Shown here: in pieces, positions 14,209-56,299 of the stretch
How the letters are laid out: each line of letters begins with the position of its first letter
How positions within the stretch are numbered: position 1 is the first letter of the stretch
Program-made: the position numbers and the translations under genes
Notes under the pieces: model-generated
What the model was told of the DNA's origin: nothing
The model's database searches: none
What the model saw: the letters and a program-made list of their open reading frames with translations, nothing else
NCBI GenBank assembly: GCA_964016885.1
Contig: OZ024743.1
Coordinates: forward strand, 337,404,001 to 337,468,000
DNA from: Eledone cirrhosa
Taxonomy: Eukaryota
Direction of reading: 5' to 3'
DNA length: 64,000 nucleotides

Positions 14209-14286
<78 letters not shown>

Positions 14287-14289
<3 letters not shown>

Positions 14290-14489
14290 CGAAGGAAATG
14301 TGGTAAGGAACCAGGTGGACCATAACGCACCAAAGTACTCAATACTTGAGGTAGTAGAGTGGGTAATAGGAACCAGTAAGACCCCGACAGCTGAGCTCAA
14401 GCCGTTTCGACGGCTAATTCTGGACTCAGCTAGTCCAGAATTAGCCGTCGAAACGGCTTGAGCTCAGCTGTCGGGGTCTTACTGGTTCC
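14287..14489. mobile_element. PLE pLTR fold-back mini-insert (family of 23255-27226) in (TA)n
   Basis: Reverse complement of the pLTR 3' end, a 5-nt spacer (14427-14431), then a forward arm AGTCCAGAATT...GTTCC followed by TA. Confidence 0.9.
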
Positions 14490-14762
14490 TATATATATAT
14501 ATATATATATATACAAAATTAAATTAAGGGTATCATGTCCGAGATATGCGCCATATCCACCGTAGAATATGCTCAAAGATTCCAATGAATAGATCCGATC
14601 ATTTTATATCAACTAGAAATTGATTGACCTATATATATATATCTAAAATAAACACATGAAACAATCACAGGAGGTAATTTGTAAAGTGTGTAATCACACA
14701 GAGCTAGGTAGGTAATTAATTAAAGTTTAACTAGAACTTCAATATATATATATATACATACA

Positions 14763-15808: not shown

Positions 15809-18800
15809 GATATTAACAAATAGAAACTATATTTATAAAACCATATTTATTTCATTATACATATTTCAAGGACACCAAGTTAAATTATGGTGTGCTTTCA
15901 TCAGATAAAATATAATATAGATCAGTTTTATAAATAAATATTGAGATACCCTTAAAAAATGCAACCATTACTGTTGGAAGCTCCCGGATAGTGGAGTTGT
16001 TTAATTATATTATTATTAGTATTGGATATTTTTAGTTTTAAAATAAGCCGTTGGGTTACAGAGAAAGAAAAAGATAAAGAAGGAGAAAGAGAAAAAGAGA
16101 GAGAGAAAGAAAAGAGAGAGAGATAGCAGAACAACAGAGAGAAAAGAGAGAGAGAGAGAGAGAGAGAGGAGAAAGAGAAAGGAGAGAGAGCGAAAACTCT
16201 AAGTCTTATCTTGTTGAGTTATCTTAACATTTGAGATGAAATGAATAAATAAAATTAGAAATGTTAATAATCATGAATGGAAGATACATATATAATATGA
16301 GAAATTTAACCATTGTTTAAATATGATTAAATATTTAGTTAATCAGTTAAAATATTGAGATCAATACATTAAAAATTGAGATCTATATAATAAGAAATCT
16401 ATATATTATTATTAAGACTATATTATTAAAAATCTATATATTATATAACACATATACACACGCAAAAATACATACATATAAATATATATTCACACGTATA
16501 AAAATATATATACATATCTAACTACGTATATAATATATACATATAAAATATAAAGGATTTTTTAATTTGCGATATAAGAATCTTATAAAATCAGGGAAAA
16601 TCATTTCAATGTAATATCAAAGCAGCGTGAAGGAAAATTACGTTATTTAGTTATATAAATGTTACAATTGTTAAGATATTAAAGGAAATTTTATGTTATA
16701 CACACTTTATGTTATTAAACAAATGTTTTTTATATAAGTTTTATAAGATTACCTGTTATGTAGTTATGACTGTTATTAAGTGCAATCGAATTGTATGCAT
16801 ATACACATATATATACATACACAATTCCCACATATACATACATATATGTGTGTACCCACACAAATAGGTAGATATGCATCACATATATATATACATACAG
16901 ATAGACATACACGCATAAAACATATGTACATGTATATCAATACACACATACATATATATATACACACATATAGAGAGAGAAAAGTATATATAAATACAGT
17001 ACATAGTATAATTGAAGTACATAAAATACAAAAGAATTATATTACGATTTGGAAATATAATTATAAGCAATATAACTTTAAAACAATATAACTTAAAAAA
17101 TATTATAGAATATTTCAAGTTATAATTTCAAAATAATATGTTTAATAAATTTAGTATAAAAATTTTCTACGTATATTTAACTTAATTTTATATCCATAAG
17201 AGAAAGAAAAAGAAACTTTCAAAAGATAAACTTTCGAAAATAGGAGAAACTATCAAAAAATATTTTCCCCTTTTAAGAGCTTTCAGTATATTTCTCTAGA
17301 AGAGTTTATTATATTTATTTATATTTAGGAAGAACAGTTTTTTTTTACTTGTGTGTATAAGCAGTCAAAAAATGAAGGAATCTAATGATTTATCGATAGG
17401 TTCTATATGTTAATAGAATTAATTAATTAATTATATTTTAAATTTATATTTAAGCGTTGAGTTTCAATCTATGTCTACAGCAACTAAATAAATTGTTCCT
17501 TAGGTTCAGGGAATTTTTGGTCTTTAATATAAAGAATATTTCCTCTATACAAAGATCACAATTTTCTGAAGAGGAGTTAAAAGGAGTAGCTTTTGAAATA
17601 ATATTCCAAATCAACGAATATTCAACGTTCTTTAGTTTGAAGTCCCCATAATAAGCTAGATAGAGAAGTTGAAGATTTTTTGTTTGGATCTGTAAAAGAA
17701 TTTTTTATGATTATTGAAGCGGGATTTAAAACTCTGTGGAAGTGGATCCCACATAATTAAATGAATTTAAATTAGTTTTTTACATTACAATTATATACTA
17801 TATTTTTAGCTAAGCAATTGAGATTTATTTCTACAGTTACATTTATCAAATTGGATATTGCTTGGGTTATTAGTGGTATTTTGGTTAGGTTTTAAATTTC
17901 TATTATTAATTCTATTAATATTTTGCGCTAAGTTTTTGGTGGAAGAATAAGTTAATTTTTATAGTATGTCTATTAAAGATTGAATAATATCTATGTGTTT
18001 CTAGGGAAGCATTTGTCAAGAGCTTTAAAAAATAGTTTAGCAATAGGGATTTTAATATTTAATGAGAAAGGAGGAGCGAACCATAATATGTTCCTAGTTC
18101 TATTTCTTTTTTTTGTTTTCGGAATCATTGTAAGGTATTATAGTTGTTAAAATTGTTTAAAATAGTTAAAATTGTTACGATTATGGTTAGTTGTTATATT
18201 ATTATTATCAATGTATTTAATTTTATTTCTATACCCAGCTCTACCTAACGCTTCGTTGTAATAATGTGCTTTATCATCAAATATATTCTTATTAGCTGAA
18301 ATTCTCGAAATTCGTTCCTGTACAGAATTCACTATAGTATTTTTAACGGATCTGGGGTGATTAGAGTTAAAATTGACGTAGTTTAAGTTCTCATTTAGTT
18401 TGTGAAATGGATAATGAAGACATGTGTTAAGATTTAGTGTTACATCTAGAAAGTTAACTATTTTATGGTTATTCTCTATTTCTACTTTTAGATTAAGGTA
18501 ATTAAAAAATTGTATAATTTGTTTTCTTTTTCTATTTAGTTCACAGTTATTATTTTCTATAAGTAAAAACATGTCGTCACGATATAAACCTCCGGTTATC
18601 TCAGGAATTTTCCTATGTAGAGAATTATTTATAAAGAGGCCCACAAGATCCGTTACCTGAGCGGAATCGGATGATCCCATAGTTATATCGAAGTTATTAT
18701 TTCTATCTGCCCTAGTCCAGAGTTGGTTATTAAATTCTATTAATGTTTTCCGTGCCGATAATATAATGTGCATTTCATTGCTAGTTAAGTCTGTATGTTT

Positions 18801-19047
18801 AAATGCGTAAGTTAGTGCTTTATTCAGTAGATTAGGAGTGACAGATGAGTAATAGTTAGCAATATCCAACTGAATAAACTTATTATTATAGTTATATTTA
18901 ATTTCCTTAAACCAATCGATAACTTCACTAGTTCCTTTCCATAATTTTAAATAAGATAAATTTTTAATTTGTGGTATTATTCTGTCTAAAATATTTTTGC
19001 TAAGTCTGCCAAGGTCCGATTTAGATGGTGCAATTAATCTGACTGGT
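15808..19047 (-). mobile_element. AT-rich Penelope-like element, 5'-truncated, in (TA)n
   Basis: RT ORF 18147-18869 (DIANYY, MGSSDS, GGLYRDD). GIY-YIG region at ~17500-17830 (YVGSTSTEFKSRFNNH). Long AT-rich 3'UTR, then a pLTR with HHR. Confidence 0.9.
15849..15910 (-). ncRNA. Minimal type I hammerhead in PLE pLTR
   Basis: TTTTAT CTGATGA AAG..CTT GAAA TATGTA TA ATGAAA. Confidence 0.8.
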
Positions 19048-19070
19048 AAATATATATATATATATATATG

Positions 19071-19158
<88 letters not shown>

Positions 19159-21895: not shown

Positions 21896-21973
<78 letters not shown>

Positions 21974-21976
<3 letters not shown>

Positions 21977-22084
21977 AAAAGAGTCAGGATCCCGACGGTC
22001 GGCTGAGCTCCGGCCGTTTCGACAGCTAGATCCAAACTAAGTCACCAGTTATGGTCCACCTGCTATTTTACCACACCCTTTTTG

Positions 22085-22088
<4 letters not shown>
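21974..22088. mobile_element. Diverged PLE pLTR mini-insert (inverted arm plus forward tail)
   Basis: Reverse complement AGTTTGGATCTAGCTGTCGAAACGGCC..CCGTCGGG is homologous to 23591-23648. The tail ttatggtccacctg matches the pLTR end. Confidence 0.7.
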
Positions 22089-22119
<31 letters not shown>

Positions 22120-23161: not shown

Positions 23162-23542
23162 TATTTATTTATTTATGTATTTCTTTAGCCTAGCAATAGC
23201 GAGAGACTTAAGTCTTAGTAACCAGCCTTAGCTTATTTTTTTTTTTGTTTTTTTTTTGTTTGTTTTTTTTCATTCTCAGTACTTTTTATAGTTTTACCCT
23301 TAATTGTTCTACTTACCGTTTCGACTTCCTCCCCCTCCCCCTCCCCAGTATCCTCTTTGACCTCACGCCCAGCTGTAGCCGGCACTACCAACGCATGAAT
23401 GGGTCTACTCCACCCCCTCGCCCTTTTTCTCCTACCGCCAGGTTTAGCTACCCCTTCCCCCACCAATTTGCCATCACAGATTTACTACTAACTTGTGATG
23501 TGACCAATCCTGGTGATTATCTCTTTGACCATATATGGAATT

Positions 23543-23636
23543 ACCCCTTGATAAGCTCGGCTATTTAAATACCAGAATAAATTTTCATTCAGTCCAGAAT
23601 TAGCCGTCGAAACGGCTTGAGCTCAGCCGTCGGGGT
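23543..23636 (+). ncRNA. Type I hammerhead, U3-A8 core variant (5' pLTR)
   Basis: ACCCC TTGATAA G..CGGCTA/TAGCCG.C GAA ACGGCT..AGCCGT C GGGGT; predicted cleavage after 23631. Confidence 0.8.
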
Positions 23637-23821
23637 CTTACTTGTTCCTATTACCCACTCTACTACCCTAAGTATTGAGTACTTTGGTGCGTTATTGTCC
23701 ACCTGTTTCTTTACCACTTTTCCTTCGTTATCTAGCTCCTATCCCCGTAGTAGAACACTTTCCGACCCTACCACGCCGTATCCAGACTTTTCCGCTAAGC
23801 TCAATTTCTTTCACCCGCACC

Positions 23822-25960
23822 ATGCGAAAACACAACATCGACTTCTCTACCAAGAACATCCCAATCCCACCGAAAAAACTTTACCTTCGGATGCTCACGC
23901 AAAAAATCGATCTATTTGCGAAAAGACTTAGATGGAGAACTTTTTTCTACGACAGCTATTGCGACAATCAGGACTTCGGTACCAAGGAGAGATTCGGATT
24001 TATTACCTACAAATCTCCCCCCCCCGAACCATTTGCTCTCACCCTTCGAGAATGACCTCTTCCAACTGGTCAAGAACCTTAAATTCAAACCCAGACACAA
24101 CCGATTCCTACAAAAACTCCGTAGCAACTTAACAGAGTATGATAACACCAATGACATCATGGTGCATTCGGATAAAACTGGGAACCTATACTTTGTCAAC
24201 CCCGACAGATACCACACACTGATCAGGAGCAGTCTAAACTGCACCTATAAAAAGGCTAACCACTCATGCATCGAGGAAATTAATCGAGATGGACAACAAA
24301 TTACCTCCAGCCTCAGGGTCGCCGACCGCACCGAACCCCTAGACCCACGGACACCCTACTTCACACTGAAGGACCACAAATCCGATTTCGACCGTAAACC
24401 TTCTATCAGGCTTATAAACCCAACGAAGTCCGACATAGGGAGAATCAGCAAAAAAATCCTAGACCGCGTGATACCAAAAGTCAAGCAACACGCCCGACTT
24501 AGCCTATGGATCAACACCCAGGAAGTTATCTCATGGTTCAGCAATATGGAGGATAAACGAGACACTAAATTTATCCAGTTCGACATAGAGAGCTACTATG
24601 CTTCAATCACCTTACCGCTACTTACTGCCGCCTTGGACTTCGCCGAAGCACTTGTGCCCATCACCGACCAGGAAAGAAAAATCCTCCTCCACGCCAGGAA
24701 GACAGTCTTACTCTTTGATAACTCCAAATGGATAAAAAGAGCTCCCGACTCACCCTTCGACGTCAGCATGGGCGCGTCGGATTCGGCGGAGGTCACAGAT
24801 CTTATAGGATTATTCCTTATAGCCAAACTCACCGATATGTTTCCTGCTTTCGGTGGTGGATTGTACCGTGATGATGGGCTCCTTACCCATAAAGGGTACA
24901 ACCCCAGTAGTACAGATCGGGTCCGTAAACAATTAATCAGCTTCTTCCGCGACTGGGGATTTAAAATAACCCTACAAATGTCCCTGACCCAAATTAATTT
25001 CCTGGACGTTACCCTTGATCTCAATAATGACCTGTACTACCCATACAGGAAACCCAATGACAACCTGCACTACATCCACCGCCGATCTAACCATCCTAGG
25101 AACATCACCAACACCCTGGTCAAAAACATCTCCCTCCGCATATCCCGTTTGTCAGCTAATGAGAAGATATTCGATGAACATGCGCCTTACTACAACCAGG
25201 CCCTCAAGCGGAGTGGTTTCCGGGAGGAAATATCCTACTGTCCAGCTCCCATTAGCGGAACCAGCAGGCGACACCGCCGCTCACGCAATGTAACATGGTT
25301 CAATCCTCCCCACAACGCCGAGGTGACAACTCCCATCGGGAAAATTTTCTTTAGGCTCATTGAAAAACACTTCCCACTACAACACCGCTACCACAACATA
25401 ATTAACAAAAATACCATCAAACTCTCTTACAGCACTACACCTAACTTCGCACAAAACATCGTTTCCCCCAACAACAAAAAACTCAACCCCGATGGAAGAA
25501 ACAACCTAAATAGCAGTGGAGAGCCGACCAGGAGGTGCAACTGTCCTGATAGATCCAGTTGCCCCCTCGACAACAGATGCAGAGACCGTAATGTGATCTA
25601 CCAGTGCAACGTGAGCACGGACACCTCCAACAAAGCTTATATAGGATTAACCGCATGTGACTTCAAGACCCGGCTATACCAACACCGACATACCTTCCGA
25701 AATCCGACCCGGCGTCACGCCACTACACTTTCGGGCCACATATGAGACCTCAAGGACAACAACATCAACTATGATCTCACTTGGAAATTACTGTCCAGAG
25801 CTAACTCTTACACGGGAGGACGCCGTCCGTGCAATTTATGCTCGGAGGAAACTTTACAAATGTTGTTTTCGACGGACTAACTCCTAAACAAGAAATATGA
25901 ACTGGTTACTGCATGTAAACACCGATTACGTAGGACTTACCTCGCCCTCAAACCCCATAA
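23822..25960 (+). pseudogene. PLE RT and GIY-YIG endonuclease polyprotein
   Basis: MRKHNIDFSTKNIP start; frameshift in the poly-C at ~24020; DKTGN, FDIESYY, GLYRDDGL, CNC..C..C, VIY..AYIGLT; late stops. Confidence 0.93.
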
Positions 25961-27038
25961 TGACCCGGGGGGGGGGGGGTAGACTAGGGCTATAACACCC
26001 CACTTGCCTATATTGTAATGGGTAACCCCTGCTTGCCAATGGAGACGTAAGATCTTCTTTTACATTCTTTTATCGCCTCCTCTATATTTCCTTCTTCCCC
26101 CCATCCCTCCCTAGTCCTTCAACCCCAGTTCCTTTTCTTTGTCGTCGTCTTTTTCTCGCCCACCCGAGGTAGCCCCTCGGTCCCTTGTAGCTTCAGTACC
26201 CCCACCCCCTCCCCTATTCTATGATAGATTTGGCTGACTCCGCTTTTTATAGTAGAGGTGTTAGACTTCGGATACTTGCCCCCTTCTCCGACCGCCATCC
26301 CTTTTTTCCGTGCCCTCTATATTTCTTAGTGGCATCTTTGCTTTAATTTCTCGTTTATCCAGTATTTCTTTCTTCTTTTTCTCTTTTTTTTGGGTGGGGT
26401 GGGTGGGTGGGGGTGGGGGGGTGGGGTGTTTCTGTATTAATTTTCCGTTCTTTACTTTTACTTCGTACGATCTTTCATGTAGCTTGTATAAGACTTTTTG
26501 TTTCGTGGCGGTACCCTTAGAGTTAGCATTAGTATTTTTTTGCGGGACCCTGAATTATATTCTCGTACTAGTTTACTTTCTTGCACTGGGTGGTTGCTGG
26601 CCCGGTGATTGGGGTTGAAACCTTTATTATTTCGTGGTAGTCTCTTTAGTATTTTGGCCCCCCCCTTTGTTGACCCGTCACCGTACGATACACGCACTTA
26701 TACCTCGTATAAGGGTCCCTTTATTTCCGTCCCACCTAGTTTATTATTATTATTATTATTTATTTTTTTATTCTTTATTATTATTATTATTATTATTATT
26801 TTTTTTTTTCATTCTCAGTACTTTTTATAGTTTTACCCTACATTGTTCTACTTACCGTTTCGACTTCCTCCCCCTCCCCCTCCCCAGTATCCTCTTTGAC
26901 CTCACGCCCAGCTGTAGCCGGCACTACCAACCGGCAGGTTTAGCTACCCCTTCCCCCACCAATTTGCCATCACAGATTTACTACTAACTTGTGATGTGAC
27001 CAATCCTGGTGATTATCTCTTTGACCATATATGGAATT

Positions 27039-27132
27039 ACCCCTTGATAAGCTCGGCTATTTAAATACCAGAATAAATTTTCATTCAGTCCAGAATTAGC
27101 CGTCGAAACGGCTTGAGCTCAGCCGTCGGGGT
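27039..27132 (+). ncRNA. Type I hammerhead, U3-A8 variant (3' pLTR)
   Basis: Same sequence as 23543-23636. Confidence 0.8.
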
Positions 27133-27223
27133 CTTACTTGTTCCTATTACCCACTCTACTACCCTAAGTATTGAGTACTTTGATGCGTTATGGTTCACCT
27201 GGTTCCTTACCACTTTTCCTTCG

Positions 27224-27292
<69 letters not shown>

Positions 27293-27377: not shown

Positions 27378-27738
27378 ACGGGTGTGTATGATTGTGTATA
27401 GAAGATTATATTAATAAAAGGAATTCCAACTTTGTCTGATTTACTCGTTTTATTTACAATCCTTTAAAATTTTAATGATATTGGAACAAGTACTTTCATG
27501 CTTTCGCAATCTTCAGGTTAATATTCAGTGGTGACAGCCAAGTTTGCAATTTTCAACTGTTGAAAATTGCAAACTTGGCTGTCACCACTGAATATTAACC
27601 TGAAAATTGCATGAAAGTACTTGTTCAATTAACATTTAACATTTAATATTCTACCATACTATTTCATTATAATATCATTAACATTTTAAAGGATTGTAAA
27701 TAAAACGAGTAAATCAGACAAAGTTGGAATTCCTTTTA

Positions 27739-27742
<4 letters not shown>
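27378..27742. mobile_element. Fold-back insert (1-nt spacer at 27558) with a minimal HHR at 27485-27519 (-)
   Basis: AAC CTGAAGA T TGC gaaa GCA T GAAA GTAC TT GTT; (TA)n on both flanks. Confidence 0.85.
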
Positions 27743-55556: not shown

Positions 55557-55591
<35 letters not shown>

Positions 55592-55594
<3 letters not shown>

Positions 55595-55783
55595 CGAAGG
55601 AAATGTGGTAAGGAACCAGATGGACCATAACGCACCAAAGTACTCAATACTTAGGGTAGTAGAGTGGGTAATAGGAACAAGTATGACCCCGACGGCAGAG
55701 CGCAAGCCGTTTCGACGGCTAATTTAGTCCAGAATTAGCCGTCGAAACGGCTTGAGCTCTGCCGTCGGGGTCATACTTGTTCC
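55592..55783. mobile_element. PLE pLTR fold-back mini-insert (family of 23255-27226)
   Basis: Same structure and end points as 14287-14489. Confidence 0.9.
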
Positions 55784-56299
55784 TATATATATATATATCT
55801 GTTTGTGTGTGTGTGTGTGTGTGTGTTTGTGTGTGTGCGTGTCTCTCTGTATGTGTTGGTGCAGTTTCGGTTACCTACTCTGTGTTTACACAGATATAAG
55901 GTGGAGGGGGGAGATACACATGATGAAACATATACAGTTGTGTGTCTTAGCACATGTCTGTGCTCATGTGTGTGTTTTAATATGTATATATGTACGTACA
56001 CATACACACGCATGTCTGTGTGGGTATGTGTGTGTGTATGTGTATGTGTGTGTGTGTGTATGTGTTTCTACCTTACTCCCCCTATCCCTCCTATCTATAT
56101 GTACCTGTACTTGAATATCCCCCCCGCCCCCAAACCAATCTACTATCACGCCACAAACACACACAGACGTACACACACACTCACATATACATATATACAC
56201 ACACACACATATAAAAAACTCCTCATTCCTTCAAGTCTTCATTCCAACCAAGTTCCTCAACACTTGCTAACAGACTTCACCGAAATTCTTTACCTCCTC

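Follow-up and report, generated by a model that had tools for sequence, protein, structure and literature searches.

Short head-to-head inserts of a Penelope-like element (PLE) in the Eledone cirrhosa genome, hereafter called stubs, have inner ends that concentrate inside the hammerhead ribozyme of the element. We consider it probable that each stub consists of two cDNAs, which were primed from both cut strands of the target and ran off at the capped 5' end of the RNA near a single position, +1. The stubs number tens of thousands and represent most copies of this PLE family. They are described here from a window, the analysed 64,000-nt stretch of contig OZ024743.1 (337,404,001–337,468,000), and from counts and sampled loci across the genome. 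Positions are counted from an A at window 23591, which is +1 and corresponds to 27087 in the 3' pseudo-LTR (pLTR); site B is at +61 and site A at +141.

Inserts and element in the window

Inserts 1 and 2 are head-to-head arm pairs of a Hydra-type PLE, in which one arm ends at +61 and the other at +141 (table 1). An earlier sequence-only reading of this DNA had placed the start of the forward arms at AGTCCAGAATT at 14432 and 55726, which was borne out; its extent for insert 1 (14287..14489) was amended, as the insert spans 14286–14492. A third insert, from a diverged sister family, had been said to end at the homologous base (22038). This was wrong: the arm runs 11 nt on (22039–22049), and 10 of these 11 bases match the upstream loop of its own family. 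Because the arm passes 22038 by about 11 nt, insert 3 does not add another example of an end at this base. Its two arms are joined by a 2-nt microhomology, and a 19-mer of the sister family had 3,914 exact matches in the genome. The window element had also been taken as the parent of the inserts; however, both inserts carry haplotypes of other subfamilies that differ from that of the window element, and thus it was not the donor.

Table 1. Inserts, PLE and predicted ribozyme in the window.
Feature	Position	Strand	Remarks
Insert 1, A arm	14286..14426	-	+1 to +141 of pLTR, 80-nt tail included; G at -1
Insert 1, junction filler	14427..14431	.	5 nt between arms
Insert 1, B arm	14432..14492	+	+1 to +61; ends on (TA)n
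Insert 2, A arm	55591..55724	-	+8 to +141
Insert 2, B arm	55726..55786	+	+1 to +61
Insert 3 (diverged sister family), B-type arm	21972..22049	-	passes homologous +1 (22038); ends at about -11
Insert 3, short A-type arm	22048..22090	+	tail only; no overlap with B arm in element coordinates
Hydra-type PLE	about 23252-27228	+	two pLTRs around a broken RT-GIY-YIG ORF; ends on (TA)n
5' pLTR	23252..23731	+	outer boundary approximate
3' pLTR	26790..27228	+	whole hammerhead, +1 = 27087; ends at site A on (TA)n
Broken RT + C-terminal GIY-YIG ORF	23820..25961	+	Hydra-type motifs; translation read by eye
Site B (+61)	23651	+	fixed 3' end of one arm; probable RT start
Site A (+141)	23731	+	fixed 3' end of other arm; probable RT start
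+1, putative capped transcription start	23591	+	inside loop II; putative minor starts to -4 (23587)
Predicted type I hammerhead	23543..23636	+	long stem II/loop II, palindromic loop III; sequence inspection and pair counts
U3-A8 core of predicted hammerhead	23548-23554	+	
Predicted hammerhead cut	after 23631	+	between +41 and +42

The translation of the window PLE, read by eye, contained the RT (YRDD) motif and a C-terminal YIG-type motif; a single RT and GIY-YIG ORF between aligned pLTRs is the organization of EN+ PLEs. In particular, all four Hydra motifs were present, namely DKT (for DKG), a CxCX5C linker, and CxxC and CxH around a conserved E and N, and by these motifs, as defined in the passages covered of PMC8557442, the element can be assigned to the Hydra clade type. 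In the frame upstream of the break, the translation near the N terminus reads, by eye, RWR where the Hydra clade has RWK. The ORF is damaged by a frame change near its 5' end and by two in-frame stops in the endonuclease part, and Pfam gave no match for either ORF. The 3' pLTR is without 43 nt that the 5' pLTR has upstream, and in the comparison of 23670-23721 with 27166-27217 the two pLTRs differed at five sites inside about 25 nt of the tail and at hardly any elsewhere. Two further features were observed nearby: another PLE RT fragment, diverged but similar in its motifs, on the reverse strand at 18147-19154, which adjoins (TA)n, and a long inverted repeat flanked by (TA)n tracts at 27435-27740, just 3' of the PLE.

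The core nucleotides and three stems of a type I hammerhead could be recognized in each pLTR, with a predicted cleavage site. Across nine copies from two families, 92% of the cells were paired, compared with 14–49% in slid controls; the individual stems were 91–94% paired, and stem II had one double change between the families (nine rows of related sequences). These pairing counts upheld the earlier placement of the homologous A (23591/27087) inside the loop of stem II, where +1 sits away from the stem edge. An Rfam scan gave no hammerhead family match, and unconstrained folding did not return the hammerhead; a U3-A8 variant of the core is known from PLE hammerheads (PMC4209133). The hexamer TCAGTC that had been reported at the site is correct for the subfamily of the window element, but only there, since most other subfamilies have TTAGTC. 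Both versions presumably fit the animal initiator.

Inner ends across the genome and an extra G

Exact whole-genome counts fell steeply around +1: they were 46,431 for +42..+61, 41,702 for +39..+61, 38,766 for +8..+25, 17,544 for +1..+25 and 4,652 for -5..+25, and 3,273 for -8..+25, a pattern that misses one subfamily allele. Above chance, 73% of the arms reaching +1 stopped within the next 5 nt (17,544 vs 4,652). Only 45% of the arms containing +8 reached +1, a figure that includes mutational loss, and thus trimming must account for most ends. Among the first 100 arms in genome order, taken from the +39..+61 matches and with five possibly mis-called owing to indels, 63 ended at -4 to +8, 26 at +12 to +38, and 11 read through. 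The farther-reaching arm of 51 pairs in the same region ended at -4..+2 in 31, at +3..+7 in 13 and beyond in 7. Dispersed break points, which the sequence-only reading had named as evidence against itself, were therefore not found genome-wide; however, its "same base" was too strict, as the ends are concentrated in a wall from about -4 to +7 rather than in a one-base spike. Long arms passing the wall had scattered end points. The sister family has a different loop II; of 30 arms sampled from it, only two continued all the way through, and most of the remainder stopped, as judged by eye, on the homologous A or a few bases away from it. Several sister-family arms (L368, L372, L381 and window 22039-22049) ended 8–16 nt upstream of +1, where there is possibly a second upstream start.

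A second signal was found directly before +1. In pairs, the partner arm often supplies the base at -1; thus, the test was made on arms joined straight to (TA)n, with counts by eye. The base between ATATATAT and +1 was G in 54, T in 32, A in 9 and C in 5 (first 100 of 195 matches). In the controls, G was found before +5 in only 1 (first 100 of 144; Fisher p 2e-19) and before +2 in 7 (first 100 of 281; Fisher p 2e-13). Read-through copies had C or T at -1 (79-80/80 in a set selected on that motif; 39 references). Since the element gives T or C and the target gives A, the G is untemplated. The sister family also carried G before +1, in 47 of 74 arms, or 41 of 63 after two local clusters were collapsed, and its template base at -1 was T in 98 of 100 (first 100 of 299 read-through matches). 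In the other (TA)n register, the 53 matches had C in 30, G in 20 and A in 3; the excess of C may stem from common TACA interruptions together with microhomology. Head-to-head pairs gave a weak G signal, in 8 of the 44 arms whose -1 base the partner leaves uncovered.

An untemplated 5' G in L1 and SVA has been attributed to copying of the cap (PMC3287187, PMC9341517). By analogy, the G before +1 is likely a copied mRNA cap that marks a capped RNA start, although it could alternatively reflect cap-independent addition of C by the RT at another kind of RNA end. From these DNA footprints we infer a start site at +1. A start mapping elsewhere was another outcome that had been foreseen as contradicting the reading; as approximated from DNA, the untemplated G lies exactly before +1.

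The fine structure around this position points to a minority of templates that would start 1–4 nt upstream. In the C(-1) subfamily, several arms ended exactly at -4. Runs of at least four T before +1 were present in 16 of 71 arms of the T(-1) subfamilies vs 0 of 75 of the C(-1) subfamily, in samples pooled from several searches. These observations indicated that some templates include -3..-1 and slip there. T runs of up to 17 or more directly before +1 (L111, L149, L160 and others) were confined to subfamilies with TTT at -3..-1; they may arise from reiterative copying at the template end or from reiterative transcription initiation. As a candidate for the main start, -4 was rejected: direct (TA)n joins numbered 17 there vs 195 at +1, with G in 3 of the 17, and their rarity indicated that +1 dominates. 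A TATA-like motif at -29 was not kept across subfamilies and was rejected as a conserved TATA box.

A minor class of ends lies at the predicted ribozyme cut. There were 1,100 arms with two non-template bases before +42, and 25 of 30 fetched loci were true ends, the other five being G-run expansions (some loci were the two arms of one insert). The +41 control gave 391 matches, mostly palindromes that may equally be +42 joins. By a rough estimate, +42 ends amount to a few percent of arms. Pieces of the ORF were joined to +42 in L284, L288 and L415. These results suggest that the hammerhead does cut in vivo in some RNAs. The base before +42 after (TA)n was G in only 3 of 47, with T in 15, A in 17 and C in 12, and thus the G belongs specifically to +1. 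The half ribozyme that had been anticipated at the RNA 5' end would apply to the main capped RNA but not for the minority starting at the ribozyme cut. The cut was also considered as the main wall and rejected, because the drop from 46,431 to 41,702 across +42 to +39 is mostly matched by point mutation. Loci L389-L418 have ends at the predicted cut (window 23631/23632) without an extra G, often in both arms and with a 1-nt A/T filler.

Paired arms and alternative explanations

Outside the window, we collected 106 head-to-head pairs with loose anchors, which also returned many false single arms; 98 pairs were kept, and 8 with <80% identity, some of them real, were dropped. One A arm and one B arm made up 91 of the 98 pairs, and 80 of these 91 had (TA)n at both outer ends. 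The tail is at one end only, as in the inverted 5'-truncated copies of EN+ PLEs, and long inverted arms also end at +61. The 98 pairs had 85 distinct junctions, several subfamilies and at least eight haplotypes; the inserts are independent of each other. Among the 91 pairs, the A arm reached farther 5' in 39, the B arm in 41 and neither in 11, and 4 pairs were without any overlap. Fold-back from either arm cannot produce the 41 pairs in which B reaches farther or the 4 non-overlapping pairs. The pattern thus favours, as the main route, twin priming on sense RNA rather than self-priming on an antisense template. Starting from two internal sites on the RNA, a PLE enzyme does cut and extend both strands of the target in vitro (PMC11167929). 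The proposal that the inserts are strong-stop-like cDNAs made by internal priming and run-off was supported, amended in that each insert comprises two separately primed cDNAs rather than one.

Several alternatives were weighed against two capped-RNA cDNAs. Fold-back of a single molecule, or the self-priming on an antisense template that has been proposed for head-to-head PLE junctions (PMC3846280), would explain why a four-site haplotype was common to both arms in 74 of 87 pairs, against 0.20 expected between inserts, why six rare alleles were mirrored in both arms, and why some junction fillers copy nearby sequence. We nevertheless regard it as very unlikely, since neither arm can be a copy of the other where the tail-less B arm reaches farther 5' or where the arms do not overlap, 84 rare alleles are confined to one arm, and the G precedes the sense-strand start. 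Amplification of one MITE-like ancestor, which had been named beforehand as a rival, is the least credible of the alternatives. It would accord with the fixed outer ends and with two junction types that recur five times each; however, some recurrent junctions coincide with microhomologies, the arms of one insert match each other rather than other inserts, and the diversity of junctions and haplotypes rules it out for the bulk of the inserts. Membership in the MITE class, in which many near-identical copies derive from a single founder and carry terminal inverted repeats, was likewise rejected on the 85/98 junctions and the unequal arm lengths. Non-LTR retrozymes were considered as another class; these are tandem units, each with a whole hammerhead (bioRxiv 10.64898/2026.07.22.740005), whereas the stubs are inverted and are without the 5' half of the ribozyme.

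The remaining alternatives concern the nature of +1. The sequence TTTTCATTYAG could be a splice or trans-splice acceptor, with G-AG contributed by the end of an upstream exon or leader; every subfamily of the main family has a version compatible with an acceptor, and the intron of Drosophila virilis Penelope ends at its hammerhead (PMC4209133). We consider this hardly tenable: the base before G in 46 G-preceded arms varied (T24/A9/G7/C6), longer shared words were partner-arm sequence and none matched a donor-flanked exon end in the element, ends at +3 were found in only 4 of 100, and the sister family is without the pyrimidine tract. As no shared upstream exon was found, this alternative, which the sequence-only reading had put forward for checking, gained no support. 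RTs add untemplated bases at run-off ends. Position +1 might be a real template end or hard stop other than a Pol II cap, such as an RNA processing site, a block by protein or structure, or an endonuclease cut in the element's own cDNA, with the G added by RT terminal transferase. Such untemplated addition could supply the G. The PAc endonuclease prefers ATT (PMC11167929), which is found at -4..-2. This explanation is unlikely, although less so than the others, given that the template end at +42 rarely carries G, that the wall and the G recur in the sister family although it lacks ATT at this place, and that +1 lies in the loop and not at a stem edge.

Proposed mechanism, related systems and long copies

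We proposed the following route for two cDNAs run off at the cap. The A of YAGT in hammerhead loop II would be the main start of RNA polymerase II, which would less often begin at positions as far as 4 nt upstream, and the RNA 5' end would then carry only the downstream half of the ribozyme and keep the cap and both priming sites. The element's enzyme would cut both (TA)n strands and prime at sites A and B on the 5' segment of the RNA. Both cDNAs would end by run-off at the cap, with the cap copied as C, and would then be trimmed and joined via 0–4 nt of microhomology or filler; sometimes the RT would jump to another spot of the RNA and run off again. The upstream half of the pLTR is absent from the stubs, which are probably dead ends. 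Like a retroviral strong-stop product, the stub would be a short minus-strand cDNA from an internal primer to a capped 5' end, the cap being deduced from the G footprint; its (TA)n junctions point to priming by target DNA, not tRNA.

In L1, second-strand priming, known as twin priming, gives an inversion, and the twin-primed pieces are usually non-overlapping. In the family of the window, the primers lie 61 and 141 nt from the presumed cap and the arms mostly overlap. L1 and SVA also share the extra G at the 5' junction that is ascribed to the cap; however, the G marks full-length copies in L1 and stubs here (PMC3287187, PMC9341517). The Hydra clade of EN+ PLEs (Craig et al. 2021, PMC8557442) has the same C-terminal GIY-YIG, DKT, CxCX5C, CxxC and CxH motifs, (TA)n targets, a pLTR hammerhead and an inverted, 5'-truncated copy whose tail is present at just one end. 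The tail is 30–40 nt there vs 80 nt here, where stubs form most copies, and in the passages covered, Hydra elements are described with neither a fixed inner end nor a cap footprint nor a start site. In vitro, Poseidon PAc of Anolis (Frangieh et al. 2024, PMC11167929) likewise cuts and extends both target strands, with two internal RT starts that bound the tail, the pLTR-ORF junction as template and uncut RNA as the main substrate. That study used uncapped in vitro templates with the RNA 5' end left unmapped, and had no reads at the ribozyme cut, to which a minority of genomic ends map here; a term search of the text covered found no wording on run-off or strand transfer.

Penelope of D. virilis (Schostak et al. 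2008, PMC2377424) resembles the present family in a pLTR-internal start at an Inr and an internal TATA-less promoter. Its start was mapped by RACE and is followed by an intron that ends at the hammerhead (PMC4209133), whereas the start proposed here lies inside loop II and no intron was evident. Minimal PLE hammerheads (Cervera and de la Pena 2014, PMC4209133) share the U3-A8 core, long stem II and palindromic loop III, and they also occur as opposite-strand motif pairs 100–700 bp apart, with most motifs in truncated copies. That work proposes cleavage and circles as template, whereas most stub templates here appear to be uncut and G-marked, with half a ribozyme only. Earlier work thus already covers this type of element, the inverted tail-out structure and transcription that starts inside the pLTR. 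In our literature search, which covered titles, the opening of abstracts and selected passages, no paper was found that reports a PLE cap footprint in loop II or strong-stop stubs; the supplements of PMC8557442 and PMC11167929 may hold end maps. The field has left open how PLE pLTRs are rebuilt, why hammerheads are present and how head-to-head inversions arise (PMC2377424, PMC8557442, PMC3846280), and no mechanism for pLTR regeneration is apparent in the part covered of PMC2377424. With thousands of insertions, this family offers a base-resolved record of the RNA template, in which a likely capped start in the ribozyme, two probable priming sites just 3' of it and a putative second, uncapped start at the ribozyme cut can be read.

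Long copies behaved differently from stubs. We read 30 of the 349 loci spanning site A into the ORF and treated one array of four copies as a single case. These loci held 16 independent long copies with ORF sequence, of which 14 read through +1, 2 were cut short and none stopped at +1. Simple run-off does not predict this, and thus productive copies need another route, likely with a different template state: the RNA could be circular or tandem, or the RT could jump by homology to the 3' repeat. In L260, L261, L264 and L266, a piece running from near +1 into the ORF (to +960, +254, +203 and +232, respectively) was followed by a second piece from near +1, and the joins in L261, L264 and L266 showed short microhomology by eye. 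This structure indicated that the template starts near +1 and runs into the ORF, in keeping with priming on the 5' copy of the repeat, and that the RT can jump after run-off. Microhomology-guided jumps therefore exist; seamless long copies fit circles or tandems equally well, and the tail alleles were not diagnostic for 5' vs 3' pLTR templates.

Tentatively, and with less than even confidence, we suggest that +1 to +41, bounded by the start site in the ribozyme and by the ribozyme cut, may act as a retrovirus-like terminal repeat. The 3' hammerhead would trim the RNA and remove the downstream priming sites, the 5' half-ribozyme, being uncuttable, would keep them, and a strong-stop cDNA made near the cap would have to jump to the 3' repeat. 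If so, the jump would regenerate the pLTRs, and the stubs, in their tens of thousands, would represent jumps that failed. The record left by this family also makes the regeneration of pLTRs a two-way test, strand transfer vs circular or tandem template, within reach of the existing in vitro PLE assay.

Repeated structures were observed at several loci. L261 contained two direct repeats of -2..+254 followed by -2..+144 at 1369-2029 (G000:C1:27009516-27010170), with an inverted B arm in front; these may reflect a series of jumps following run-off or a local duplication that came later. In addition, tandem arrays that look perfect, each with at least four whole elements at a period of about 3.5 kb, were found (L269-L272; G000:C1:437200354-437210966), which are possible products of a circular or multimeric template.
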